Positions 1-4,346 of a stretch of DNA of 4,346 nucleotides are shown in pieces. Origin of the DNA: a virus (Duplodnaviria > Heunggongvirae > Uroviricota > Caudoviricetes); IMG/VR virus record IMGVR_UViG_2711768005_000011, one strand, 5' to 3'. A program made the translations under genes and the position numbers. Below the pieces are notes generated by a model that made no database searches, was not told the DNA's origin, and worked only from the letters and a program-made list of their open reading frames with translations. How positions within the stretch are numbered: position 1 is the stretch's first letter; the number at the start of each line of letters is the position of its first letter.

Positions 1-41
1 GCTTTGAACTCTTTAGAGTAACGTTGGGTTTTTCTGCTCAT
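1..41 (-). CDS. IS3-family transposase OrfA, N-terminal 13 codons only (5' partial in window)
   Basis: ATG at 41..39 on the minus strand, preceded by AAGGAG (complement of 47..52) with 6-nt spacing. Open frame MSRKTQRYSKEFKA continues past position 1 with no stop. The YSxEFK pattern is typical of IS3-family OrfA N-termini. Confidence 0.55.
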   Translation of the reverse strand, partial: MSRKTQRYSKEFK

Positions 42-105
42 TATTAGCTCCTTCTGATGCCATTCTATTTCAGGAAGGAGTGTCCGTTAAACTCAGGCTA
101 CCTCA
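1..105 (-). mobile_element. Partial IS3-family insertion sequence (IS600-like), terminal ~105 bp; rest of the element lies left of the window
   Basis: Reverse complement of 60..105 begins TGAGGTAGCC; IS3-family ends are 5'-TG...CA-3'. A strong SD plus ATG for a minus-strand ORF lies 64 bp inside this putative end. The visible N-terminus MSRKTQRYSKEFKA matches my recollection of IS600 OrfA. Boundary at 105 is inferred, not confirmed. Confidence 0.55.
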
Positions 106-394
106 ATTTGCGCTGGGAAGTGGTGCGCAAGTTGCGTCTAGTGGCGATATTTATGGTTCAGTGTGGGAAAACAACTGGTTAAGCACATGGCTGCATAATC
201 ATGTCGTTCGGGATATTCGTCTTGGCAGCATTGAATATAAAAACGTATGGCGCGACTACGGCTTTGGCGATGCGTCAGGTTATGTTTTAACAGCCGCAAT
301 TAACAGCAATGCGGATGATATTGTCGACACTGTTGCCAGAAGGCCAATTCAGAAATTGATTGGGGGAATATGGTACAACGTGGGGAGTGTTTAA
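106..394 (+). pseudogene. Tail-fibre distal (C-terminal) cassette fragment with no start of its own
   Basis: Track ORF 80..394 ends ...[18 protein letters not shown]. This C-terminus matches that of the minus-strand cassette ([18 protein letters not shown]). TAA at 392..394 sits 1 nt before the tfa ATG at 396. Upstream, the same frame hits TAG at 14..16 and TGA at 5..7, and 17..105 appears to be IS-derived, so no constant N-terminal part is attached. GTG at 80 has its SD-like GGAAGGAG abutting it, so it is an unlikely real start. Confidence 0.6.
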
Positions 395-395
395 G

Positions 396-923
396 ATGAT
401 GCACCTGAAAAATATTAAGGCCGGGAATCCGAAAACACCGGAACAATACCAGCTAACTAAAAAAGCGGGCGTGGTATGGCTCTTTTGCGAAGATGGCAAA
501 AACTGGTATGAGGAACAAAAGAATTTTCAGCCAGACACCATAAAAATTGCTTACGATGAGAACAACATCATCGTTGCTGTCAGTAAAGACGTTTCAACTA
601 TTAATCCTGAAGGGCTAAGCATAGTTGAAGTTCCTGATATTACGGCAAATCGTCACGCAGACAATAACGGAAAATGGATGTTTCTGGATGGTAAAGTAGT
701 AAAGAGGGAATATACAGAACAGGAACTGCAACAACAGGCCGAATCACAAAAGGCCGCATTGCTTTCCGAAGCTGAATCAGTCATCCAGCCGCTGGAACGA
801 GCTGTCAGGCTGAATATGGCAACAGACGAGGAACGCACACGACTGGAAGCATGGGAACGCTACAGTGTTCTGGTCAGCCGTGTGGATACGGCAAATCCTG
901 AATGGCCACAAAAGCCTGAATAA
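396..923 (+). CDS. Tail-fibre assembly protein (Mu U / e14 Tfa-type chaperone), intact, 175 aa
   Basis: ATG at 396 with GGGGAG at 382..387. Protein [22 protein letters not shown] ... [25 protein letters not shown]. Translationally coupled to the preceding fibre cassette. About two-thirds of the protein is closely similar to the convergent paralogue at 952..1485. Confidence 0.85.
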
Positions 924-928
924 AAATT

Positions 929-948
929 AAGGCCCGATAGCGGGCCTT
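929..948. terminator. Bidirectional hairpin terminator between the convergent tfa genes
   Basis: AAGGCCCG (929..936) pairs perfectly with CGGGCCTT (941..948) around a 4-nt loop ATAG. It is flanked by TAAAAATT on one side, which gives a U-run for the minus-strand transcript. It lies exactly between the stop codons at 921..923 and 952..954. Confidence 0.5.
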
Positions 949-951
949 CTC

Positions 952-1485
952 TCATTCTGGTTGTTCGGGAAACGTTACTGGCAGGCTGGAGGTGTCTGTG
1001 GATTCAACCTTCTGCGCATAGAGCATCCACTCGGTTAATTTTTGTTTATTCTCATCGGAAATGATGCCCAGCTGTAGCTGAGAGTCCCACAGCTGGGTTT
1101 TATCCCTGACGAGCTGCAGCAGGCTCTGCTTTTCATTTTCCGCTTGTTGCCTTTGCTCTTCCTCGGTATAAGTTCGCTTTATCACCGCACCATCTTTGAA
1201 CATCCAGTTGCCCGAAATATCAGCCCGGCGATTTGCTGTAATATCAGGCAACTCAACGACACTTAAACCTTCTGGATTAATTGCTGATACATCCTTGTCT
1301 ATAGCAATAATTATTCCCTCAACTGTGTAAGCCAGTTTTATTGTATCCTCCTGAAAGTTTTTTAATTCCTCATGCCAATTTTTTCCATCTTCGGACCATA
1401 ACCAGATAACATCAAAATTCTTTGTTAGCTGGTATTGTTCAACGGTTTTTGGATTACCTGCGACAATGTTTTTTAAATGCTGCAT
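952..1485 (-). CDS. Tail-fibre assembly protein (Tfa/U' paralogue), intact, 177 aa
   Basis: Track [25 protein letters not shown] ... [30 protein letters not shown] at 1485..1483 lies 2 nt after the TAA (1490..1488) that ends the minus-strand fibre cassette. The N-terminal two-thirds is closely similar to the + strand Tfa. Confidence 0.85.
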
Positions 1486-1487
1486 GA

Positions 1488-1786
1488 TTATACCTGCGAT
1501 ACGTTATACCATGTTCCGTTAATTAACTTTTGTATTGGTCTGAATACTGCCGGATCATCACCATCGACTTCACCGATAATACCAAGCCCCGTGATTACAT
1601 GGCCTGATTTTTCATACATCACGCCTTTCTTCATGGTCTAAACAACTCGTGTGCCAAGTCTGACATCTCTCACATAGCGGGAATCAAAGTTACCGTAATC
1701 CGAGGGATTAACACGTCCCGTAATATTTATGGTTTTATTACTTTGAATGCTTCCGGAGACAAAGCGCATAACATGGACGTTATTAG
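1488..1786 (-). pseudogene. Side tail-fibre alternative cassette, C-terminal portion (downstream of the IS5 insertion), with an in-frame amber codon
   Basis: Same frame as the fibre segment on the other side of IS5 once IS5 and one TTAG copy are removed. Reads NNVHVMRFVSGSIQSNKTINITGRVNPSDYGNFDSRYVRDVRLGTRVV, then TAG (1640..1638), then [49 protein letters not shown], then TAA at 1490..1488. The conserved C-terminal motif lies beyond the amber codon. Confidence 0.7.
1783..1786. repeat. IS5 target-site duplication, left copy (TTAG)
   Basis: TTAG immediately left of the IS5 inverted repeat; identical TTAG at 2983..2986. IS5 is known to make 4-bp duplications at YTAR-type targets. Confidence 0.85.
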
Positions 1787-2982
<1,196 letters not shown>

Positions 2983-2986
2983 TTAG
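2983..2986. repeat. IS5 target-site duplication, right copy (TTAG)
   Basis: TTAG immediately right of the IS5 right inverted repeat; matches 1783..1786. Confidence 0.85.
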
Positions 2987-3614
2987 CATAAACATCCAGA
3001 TTACCATCGCCTTTTTGTTTAAAGCCCGTGTCATTATCACCCAATACAATCGAATTACCGCCAAGAGCACTGGATGTTCCGATACCCAGTGCACCATTCA
3101 GTTGACCACCAGATAACGGCAGTGCACCAACATCTCCTGCTGAAGGTTTTCTGGTGGTGTAAAATTCGGACCAGTCGGCTTCAAAACCATAACCATCACG
3201 GGCTGAACGATAAAAAATACCGCCATTTTTATAATTAATCCGAAACTGAGCTGCAGGACAACTTCCTTCTCCCATATAAAAATGAATAATTAACGTTGAT
3301 GCACCACTAATAGTTGCGTTATAGGCTCCGCTACTCCAGTTCCATCCAACTGCTTTATCATTCGCAACGGTGCTTCCTGTTTTCCCTAAGGCAAACGCAC
3401 CAACATGACTTGCTTTTAATGTGATATCGGAGGAACCATCAAAAGCCACATTGCTTATTTTCCTGGCAGTTTTTAATTTTGCAGCTGTAGAAGCATTGCC
3501 GGATAGTTCACCAGAAAGGCCACCGCTGAATGTTTGTCGATTAGTCCAGGTATTCGCTGTACTGAGTAACGGTATTTTCTCCCCGCTTGTGCCGAGTTCT
3601 CGTAAACCGAGGTT
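2983..3614 (-). pseudogene. Side tail-fibre alternative cassette, N-terminal portion of the variable region (from the crossover site to the IS5 junction)
   Basis: Minus-strand frame opens inside the crossover site (in-frame TAA at 3617..3615) and reads NLGLRELGTSGEKIPLLSTANTWTNRQTFSGG ... FDGSSDITLKAS ... GDGNLDVYA up to the IS5 junction. Track ORF 2874..3449 is the lower part of this frame; its last ~37 codons are IS5 sequence. It resembles lambdoid side tail-fibre (Stf) C-terminal regions as I recall them. Confidence 0.75.
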
Positions 3615-3622
3615 TTAGATAA
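3597..3622. other. Gin/Pin/Cin/Hin-family recombination crossover site (gix/pix-like), right boundary of the invertible segment
   Basis: TTCTCGTAAACC GA GGTTTTAGATAA is a 26-bp imperfect palindrome with the AAACC-NN-GGTTT core characteristic of serine-invertase crossover sites. It lies ~55 bp upstream of the invertase start, and the minus-strand fibre cassette frame begins in its inner half. Confidence 0.8.
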
Positions 3623-3676
3623 TGGCGGTTTCTGGCCTGCATGGCATGATTTGTGCTTTTGGACGGGAGATTCAGC

Positions 3677-3916
3677 GTGCTGATTGGCTATGTAAGGGTA
3701 TCAACAAATGACCAGAATACAGACCTGCAACGAAACGCTCTTGTTTGTGCAGGATATGAACAAATATTTGAAGATAAATTAAGCGGAACAAGGACAGGCC
3801 GACCTGGATTAAAACGTGCTTTAAAGCGCCTTCAAAAAGGTGACGCACTGGTTGTCTGAAAACTGGACTGACTGGGGCACTGTATGCGGCATCTTGTCGT
3901 GCTGGTGGTGGAAGCC
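3677..3916 (+). pseudogene. pin: Serine DNA invertase (Pin/Gin/Cin/Hin family), N-terminal ~60 codons intact then disrupted by stops
   Basis: GTG at 3677 with GGGAGA at 3663..3668. Reads VLIGYVRVSTNDQNTDLQRNALVCAGYEQIFEDKLSGTRTGRPGLKRALKRLQKGDALVV, a recognisable invertase N-terminus with the catalytic-Ser region. Then TGA at 3857..3859 where W is expected, KLD, TGA at 3869..3871 where R is expected, and LGHCMRHLVVLV. A full-length invertase would be ~190 aa. The ATG at 3653 used by the ORF track has no SD and is probably not the start. Confidence 0.8.
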
Positions 3917-4003
3917 TAGAAAAAGTATCGGGTGTTGCTGAACCGTGTTGATACATCAACTGCACCTGATATTGAGTGGCCTACGAACCCTGTCAGGGAG
4001 TAA
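3917..4003 (+). pseudogene. Remnant of the 3' end of a tail-fibre assembly (tfa) gene, in frame with the invertase fragment
   Basis: Same frame as the pin fragment reads EA, TAG (3917..3919), then KKYRVLLNRVDTSTAPDIEWPTNPVRE and TAA (4001..4003). This parallels the C-terminus of the intact Tfa in this window ([25 protein letters not shown]), with the conserved Trp codon replaced by TAG. Confidence 0.5.
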
Positions 4004-4017
4004 TCATTGGGATTATG

Positions 4018-4050
4018 CCGCAGCACGTCTTAAGCAAGAACGTGCTGCGG
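4018..4050. terminator. GC-rich stem-loop, possible terminator between convergent transcription units
   Basis: CCGCAGCACGT (4018..4028) pairs perfectly with ACGTGCTGCGG (4040..4050) around an 11-nt loop. It lies between the tfa-like remnant stop (4003) and the stop of the convergent minus-strand ORF (4058..4060). A T-run at 4061..4066 follows on the + strand, but 10 nt from the stem. Confidence 0.4.
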
Positions 4051-4060
4051 TTGGATGCTA

Positions 4061-4346
4061 TTTTTTCCCTGAAGCGGAAAACATTACTACAGTACCTTGA
4101 ACCTTGGTTTTAACATTCTCGAAATGCTCTGAGAGTATATGTGTTAAGCCTTCTTCGGAATCTTTTGTGTTTGAAAAGATGCCTTTCTGATTGTAAATGC
4201 GCATCAGTTTTTGACCGAAGCTATTGTGCACAACTCCATCGCCAAGAATTGTGGCTCCGTATAGAGTTCCATCGTCAGTTAAGGCCTGCGCCGCATTGCG
4301 TATTACACAGCTTTTTGTAGATATATTTCCAGGCAGGCAGTGAAGA
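4061..4346 (-). CDS. Hypothetical protein, C-terminal ~95 codons (5' end beyond the right edge of the window)
   Basis: Uninterrupted minus-strand frame from the window edge to TAG at 4060..4058: LHCLPGNISTKSCVIRNAAQALTDDGTLYGATILGDGVVHNSFGQKLMRIYNQKGIFSNTKDSEEGLTHILSEHFENVKTKVQGTVVMFSASGKK. The other two minus frames are closed. No family recognised. Not in the ORF track because no start codon lies in the window. Confidence 0.55.

Follow-up and report, generated by a model that had tools for sequence, protein, structure and literature searches.

An orphan gix-type crossover site beside a dead invertase gene in a decayed lambdoid prophage of Shigella sonnei

The DNA analysed here (the window) is 4,346 nt long and represents the entire draft contig CWVK01000234.1 of assembly GCA_001256455.1 of Shigella sonnei, the species name being taken from the source annotation of near-identical tail-fibre proteins. 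It carries a tail-fibre cassette of a decayed lambdoid prophage located beside the trp operon, and the cassette is the ortholog of that of prophage Phi4 in Escherichia coli EC958. The variable exon Sv is followed by the assembly genes tfa and tfa', which are convergent, and then by the second variable exon Sv', the crossover site and the invertase gene. The coordinates of all features are given in Table 1. The window was compared mainly with 20.5-kb loci from complete S. sonnei genomes, designated as L001-L008, which were found via a look-up of the tfa' protein.

Table 1. Features of the window (contig CWVK01000234.1), with positions counted from its first nucleotide
Feature	Positions	Strand	Remarks
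IS600 end (IS3 family)	1-105	-	Terminal inverted repeat and first orfA codons; contig edge; left end of the former invertible segment
Variable tail-fibre exon Sv, 3' remnant (last 96 codons)	106-394	+	Upstream ~600 bp and partner site gone
tfa, tail-fibre assembly gene (U-like, 175 aa)	396-923	+	Pfam Caudo_TAP, E = 8e-37; length as in Mu U
tfa', tail-fibre assembly gene (U'-like, 177 aa)	952-1485	-	Pfam Caudo_TAP, E = 5e-34; length as in Mu U'
Variable exon Sv', distal part	1488-1786	-	In-frame stop at 1638-1640
IS5 within Sv'	1787-2982	+	TTAG target duplication, 1783-1786 / 2983-2986
Variable exon Sv', proximal part	2983-3596	-	Without start codon; Pfam gp37_C
26-bp crossover site	3597-3622	+	Two 12-bp half-sites flanking core GA; invertase-proximal boundary of the segment
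Dead gin/pin invertase gene	3677-3916	+	GTG start; ~80 of ~193 codons left
Presumed Fis-dependent enhancer (sis-like)	3698-3761		Homology-inferred; 15-mers 3698-3712 and 3747-3761
Tail-fibre assembly gene, 3' remnant	3917-4003	+	In-frame fusion to the invertase stump; annotated as partial in EC958 and FDAARGOS_1077
Class I SAM-dependent methyltransferase gene, 3' part	4058-4346	-	Runs off the contig

The proximal part of Sv' has no start codon because the constant tail-fibre part, Sc, is absent. Its translated sequence equals that of an 875-aa Sc-Sv' protein encoded by L008 from residue 614 on, and the other side of the cassette (window 106-1786) aligns with positions 11380-9700 of L002. In L008, the Sc-Sv' protein stops at the in-frame stop of Sv' and is followed by an ORF of 48 aa. 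This stop (window 1638-1640; L008 9846-9851) removes the last 48 codons and was present in all S. sonnei loci inspected; a variant of 925 aa (P0002), recorded on five contigs, may be the stop-free version. The methyltransferase gene at the right end was called in L001-L008, where it has methyltransferase Pfam matches, and it is annotated in E. coli, too; its fragment in the window alone gave no Pfam match. The 3' remnant of tfa at the invertase stump (window 3906-4052) shares 89% identity with another tfa remnant (L001 7584-7731) on the far side of the methyltransferase gene, and this gene thus lies between two direct repeats of a tfa end.

The 26-bp site consists of TTCTCGTAAACC and GGTTTTAGATAA on both sides of GA, the full 26-mer being TTCTCGTAAACCGAGGTTTTAGATAA. 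When aligned with gixR of phage Mu (read from NC_000929), 23 of the 26 positions are equal and three differ. With gixR as a query and up to three mismatches allowed, this was the one place matched in the window, and none of 200 dinucleotide-preserving shuffles contained a match. The bare core pattern AAACCNNGGTTT, with up to two mismatches, was matched four times against 2.4 expected, which is not significant alone. Compared with its own reverse complement, the site is equal at 18 of 26 positions, i.e., it is built of imperfectly inverted 12-bp half-sites and a 2-bp core. All 26 positions are identical to positions 1487865-1487890 of EC958, the published site Phi4_3prime, and window 2983-4346 as a whole shares 99.3% identity with EC958. 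Sv' ends at 3596 and the GTG of the invertase gene is at 3677, which places the site at the boundary between the exon and the invertase gene, with the spacing of 54 bp from site to start codon as in Mu. Furthermore, the inversion breakpoints of L008 and of five other S. sonnei loci (L012, L014, L016, L019, and L020) fall within it. Window 3597-3622 is therefore a real gix-type crossover site of an already known system, and the description of it as intact and well conserved in the initial annotation, an earlier reading of the same DNA, is correct. A near-consensus core, GAACCTTGGTTT, at positions 4099-4110 was considered as a further site and rejected, as its outer half-sites mismatch, its core is TT, and it needs a private SNP at 4104. 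At this position, the window has T and all eight complete-genome loci have C; the SNP makes GAACCTTGGTTT, and this was judged a chance resemblance.

The invertase gene is represented by an ORF of 60 codons (3677-3859), the product of which matches positions 2-69 of 145 of the Pfam Resolvase domain. No HTH_7 domain was recognized in the stump by Pfam, while the intact invertase of EC958 prophage Phi1 has both Resolvase and HTH_7. The GTG start is that of Mu gin, from which the first 183 nt differ by six bases; the initial annotation had the first ~180 nt of the gene as retained, and this was confirmed. Two stops interrupt the reading frame, one at codon 61 (TGG to TGA, S. sonnei only) and one at codon 65 (also in E. 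coli), and after about codon 80 the frame continues into a tfa gene, of which the final ~28 codons are left. A frameshift was considered as the lesion and rejected, since on translation both the stops and the fusion proved to be in frame. The change at window 3859, which creates the extra stop at codon 61, is specific to S. sonnei in comparison with E. coli and Mu. The motif with the catalytic serine, YVRVSTNDQ, is kept in the stump (the catalytic residue of Gin is Ser9; PMC3575834), and the catalytic domain is incomplete. The cognate invertase had been reported as truncated on first inspection, rightly so. Both E. coli FDAARGOS_1077 and EC958 carry the same stump beside trpA/ompW, annotated in EC958 as 'recombinase family protein, incomplete', and the invertase therefore died before S. 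sonnei arose.

Positions 3677-3770 differ from Mu gin at a single base (3756), and within them a putative Fis-dependent enhancer is probably intact. Two 15-mers of the form G-N13-C with A/T-rich centres (3698-3712 and 3747-3761) are centred 95 and 144 bp, respectively, from the centre of the site and 49 bp from each other; many other G-N13-C 15-mers are present nearby. The Mu enhancer is located inside the invertase gene, and in Salmonella the distance from hixL to the proximal Fis site is about 100 bp (PMC3798978). By homology, the candidate enhancer has the placement typical for its class, within the beginning of the invertase gene and at a distance of about 100 bp to the crossover site next to it. 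The base at 3756, within the distal candidate Fis site, is an A specific to S. sonnei in comparison with E. coli and Mu.

Two insertion sequences are present in the window. Alignment of the window to L001-L008 breaks at 1786/2983 with an overlap of 4 bp, at the IS5 copy that interrupts Sv'. The transposase of this element has Pfam DDE_Tnp_1 and DUF772 domains, and its E. coli match is annotated as IS5. An ORF of 191 aa that is fused across IS5 is on record on CWVK01000234.1 only, and a look-up of a 72-aa ORF across the IS5 junction gave no record. IS5 is absent from all eight complete-genome loci, and its insertion appears to be private to this isolate.

The second element forms the left edge of the contig. 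Window 1-105 is 100% identical to IS600 copies in L001-L007, and the full element is annotated in E. coli genomes as 'IS3-like element IS600 family transposase' (99.6% identity). No target duplication was found at the flanks of IS600, which fits an IS-associated deletion. Loci L003, L004, and L006 match the window at 100% over positions 1-1786 and, IS5 aside, differ from it by one or two bases over 2983-4346. In L001 and L003-L006, the junction of IS600 and Sv coincides to the base with that of the window. Past IS600, loci L001, L003, L004, and L006 encode lysis genes, a second IS600, a DNA methylase gene, and the antiterminator gene Q, and this gene order is collinear with a lambdoid late operon minus the head and tail genes. 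These genomes have neither tail genes nor the constant tail-fibre part, and with the partner site some 600 bp of Sv are gone as well. The Sv exon of L002 and L007 runs 599 bp further to a second site, TTCCTGTAAACCGAGGTATTCGATAA, inside a gene for a 918-aa side-tail-fibre protein. This Sc-proximal site is at positions 11980-12005 of L002, and in L002, L007, and L008 the partner is 2.9 kb from the site described above.

There is no second site in the window, where the next-best 26-mer mismatches at 10 positions. The absence of a partner had been stated in the initial annotation, together with a mismatch of the only candidate at 12-37, and both observations stand: positions 12-37, within the start of IS600 orfA, have 15 mismatches when read directly and 16 when read inverted. 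The five truncated complete-genome loci were scanned by half-sites over 20.5 kb, i.e., 10 kb on each side, and no partner was found; the scan returned the known site and one chance-level match with a wrong core, and 0.65 such matches are expected per shuffled locus. The earlier expectation that the partner, if it survived, would be located beyond the IS3-like element is not supported, as near-identical complete genomes have lysis genes after IS600 and no site within 10 kb. An inversion that flips both IS copies is not supported either, and the two elements differ (IS600 at the edge and IS5 in Sv'). A search for a second site had been proposed as a way to recognize a relic, and the result in the near-identical complete genomes, with none within 10 kb on either side, marks the site as a relic in this lineage. 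As judged from these genomes, the contig itself stopping in IS600, the partner was very probably deleted rather than moved. With no partner left in cis to invert with, the site in this lineage is a non-functional relic.

One of the truncated loci has a different arrangement past IS600. The stretch of L005 from 12600 to 20300, located between two IS600 copies and containing the lysis genes, the methylase gene, and antiterminator Q, is inverted relative to L004. This arrangement is opposite to that in L001, L003, L004, and L006 and resembles an IS600-mediated inversion.

According to a different explanation, the partner survives elsewhere in the chromosome, either rearranged beyond IS600 or as a site of another prophage, and an invertase supplied in trans would produce large inversions carrying the IS elements. 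Rearrangement mediated by IS600 does occur at the locus, as in L005, the site and the presumed enhancer are intact, and near-identical sites of Phi1 and Phi4 coexist in the single genome of EC958. However, the gene order past IS600 is what a simple loss of the late region would leave, five complete genomes are without a site within 10 kb on either side, and among the 120 best tail-fibre relatives none is named S. sonnei and has the length of an IS600-truncated Sc-Sv fusion. Survival of the partner is thus considered unlikely. It is similarly improbable that the orphan site is a live substrate for a Gin/Pin-family invertase acting in trans in S. sonnei and occasionally recombines with sites or quasi-sites of other prophages. 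If it were, large chromosomal inversions or deletions would be expected, and a site-specific route would be added to the IS-driven rearrangement of the genome.

The function of the site was read from relatives with both sites, in which two orientations of the segment were found. Loci L002 and L007 represent orientation A; in orientation B, represented by the S. sonnei loci L008, L012, L014, L016, L019, and L020, the 2.9-kb segment is flipped with respect to the constant tail-fibre part and the invertase stump. The sites of A and B genomes are exact reciprocal hybrids; positions 6 and 17 of the 26-mer bound the interval of exchange, which has the central GA in it. Exchange confined to the core of the site, with reciprocal hybrids as the products, is the signature of a serine invertase and not of general recombination. 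The flank on the invertase side is identical and gap-free over 724 bp in A and B genomes, and the inversions therefore postdate the death of the invertase. Three drafts (L011, L015, and L017, all scaffolded assemblies) contain A-type and B-type junctions, both on contiguous sequence, which is an indirect indication of mixed cultures. Among 5,426 complete E. coli genomes, the locus with the same dead invertase has Sv' beside the stump in 239 and Sv in 145. These counts were obtained with balanced junction queries; an earlier pair of queries was dropped, as the threshold of 80% coverage could be reached even with an intact invertase. Strand exchange thus occurs in orthologous copies that retain the partner, and the site is recombination-proficient.

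Several further observations concern the records of this locus. E. coli NZ_CP023849.1 (4/0) has the segment in the opposite orientation to NZ_CP023844.1 (4/1-1) and NZ_CP023826.1 (4/4), at nearly the same coordinate, although the names of these strains suggest siblings. In L013 and L018 (GCA_900160265.1 and GCA_900160435.1), redundant and oppositely oriented contigs of the cassette are joined via single Ns, and scaffolding is evidently misled by the invertible segment. Draft contigs with tfa' are mostly 2-5 kb long (3176 of 4765 index blocks).

It could be argued that the site became inert upon the loss of the invertase, and that the two orientations arose by homologous recombination between inverted repeats or are artefacts of assembly. 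Inverted homology does exist between the halves of the segment, with tfa and tfa' about 68% identical, and several drafts have obvious scaffolding errors around the segment. In every genome typed, however, the exchange falls in a 12-bp interval centred on the core dinucleotide, with perfect reciprocal half-sites, and both states are present in finished genomes. RecA-dependent exchange is not efficient over an imperfect inverted repeat as short as 36 bp. The inverted repeat around the sites is imperfect and no longer than 36 bp (PMC4134206). Moreover, both states were seen in PacBio reads of one EC958 culture, the authors of which excluded adapter artefacts (PMC4134206). An inert site is hence very improbable. 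Finally, a chance likeness inside tail-fibre coding sequence has negligible probability: the short core pattern alone is indeed not significant, but the full 26-mer matches Mu gixR where no shuffle does, is identical to a published and experimentally observed crossover site, and sits where inversions break in relatives.

The preferred reading, to which a probability of about 85% is assigned, is that the site is the invertase-proximal crossover site of a decayed cassette resembling the Mu G segment, left as a relic after deletion of its partner, and that in relatives with both sites the segment is flipped in trans. In an intact cassette, a dimer of the serine invertase binds each of two inverted 26-bp sites, and Fis binds the enhancer inside the invertase gene. 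The invertase then cuts at the central GA and swaps the half-sites, so that about 2.9 kb flip and the constant part Sc is joined to Sv or Sv'. The local invertase had died before S. sonnei arose, with the site remaining a good substrate, and flipping in relatives with both sites may have continued by an invertase supplied in trans. A deletion associated with IS600 would have removed the head and tail genes along with Sc, the partner site, and 600 bp at the upstream end of Sv, and IS5 would have landed in Sv' later. Invertases of the Gin/Hin/Cin/Pin family complement one another. The initial annotation had invoked this for an invertase of another prophage, and such action in trans is realistic, as both orientations and reciprocal hybrids occur in S. 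sonnei and E. coli genomes that share the dead invertase. It has also been proposed for the orthologous Phi4 of EC958 from PacBio reads (PMC4134206). Flipping of the segment in relatives fits a trans-supplied invertase. When plasmids were searched with Gin by tblastn (at least 5000 records), no S. sonnei plasmid was among the 40 matches listed. Likewise, no protein named S. sonnei was among the homologues listed as matches, nor among the members of ten large clusters, and an intact invertase of S. sonnei was thus not identified among the matches listed.

The closest known system is prophage Phi4 of E. coli O25b:H4-ST131 EC958, the crossover sites of which were listed by Forde et al. 2014 (PMC4134206). 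Both orientations of its segment were present in PacBio reads of one culture; the Phi4 invertase was noted to be severely truncated, and the Phi1 invertase was proposed to invert the segment in trans (PMC4134206). The Phi4_3prime site together with the six bases of printed flank is the reverse complement of window 3591-3622, and Phi4_5prime is the S. sonnei partner site as found in L002. The truncated invertase gene fused to a tfa remnant, the methyltransferase gene, and the trpA/ompW neighbourhood are also shared. Phi4 has both sites, however, and its 3.1-kb segment flips in culture, whereas in the lineage of the window a deletion behind IS600 has very probably removed the 5' site and the constant part. 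Unlike Phi4, the window has IS5 in Sv' and the extra stop at codon 61 of the invertase gene, and the distal part of the segment (tfa, tfa', and the end of Sv') is only about 73% identical between the two.

The cassette resembles the G segment of Mu in gene order, in the lengths of U and U' (528 and 534 nt, 28 bp apart), and in the GA core. It differs from Mu in the constant part, which in relatives is the N-terminal domain of a lambdoid side-tail fibre (Pfam phage_tail_N) and not Mu S, and, in the window, in the dead invertase and the missing site. A G-like segment of a Shigella chromosome that is joined to a different constant region and inverted by heterologous invertases, the B segment of Shigella boydii, was reportedly described by Tominaga et al. 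in 1991 (J Bacteriol 173:4079), and its pinB gene is said to be active. The window, with its invertase stump and half-deleted cassette, differs from that system, the two being compared by their descriptions. The H segment with hin of Salmonella, the C segment with cin of P1, and the P segment with pin of e14 also depend on serine invertases that require Fis and an enhancer and act on 26-bp sites (PMC3798978). Their sites are more distant in sequence from the site in the window, and Salmonella hin controls a promoter and not tail-fibre exons.

For the orthologous Phi4 of EC958, the crossover site and the truncation of the invertase are already published, as is the proposal that inversion takes place in trans. 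The literature searched for invertases, inversion, and prophages of S. sonnei contained nothing on this locus. The additions made here are modest. The same cassette is present in S. sonnei, and isolates with two sites have both orientations despite the dead invertase. The invertible cassette also explains the contigs of a few kb obtained at this locus in short-read assemblies. In the lineage of the contig, the partner was very probably lost by an IS600-associated deletion and the cassette was frozen, which would make it a small example of IS-driven decay.
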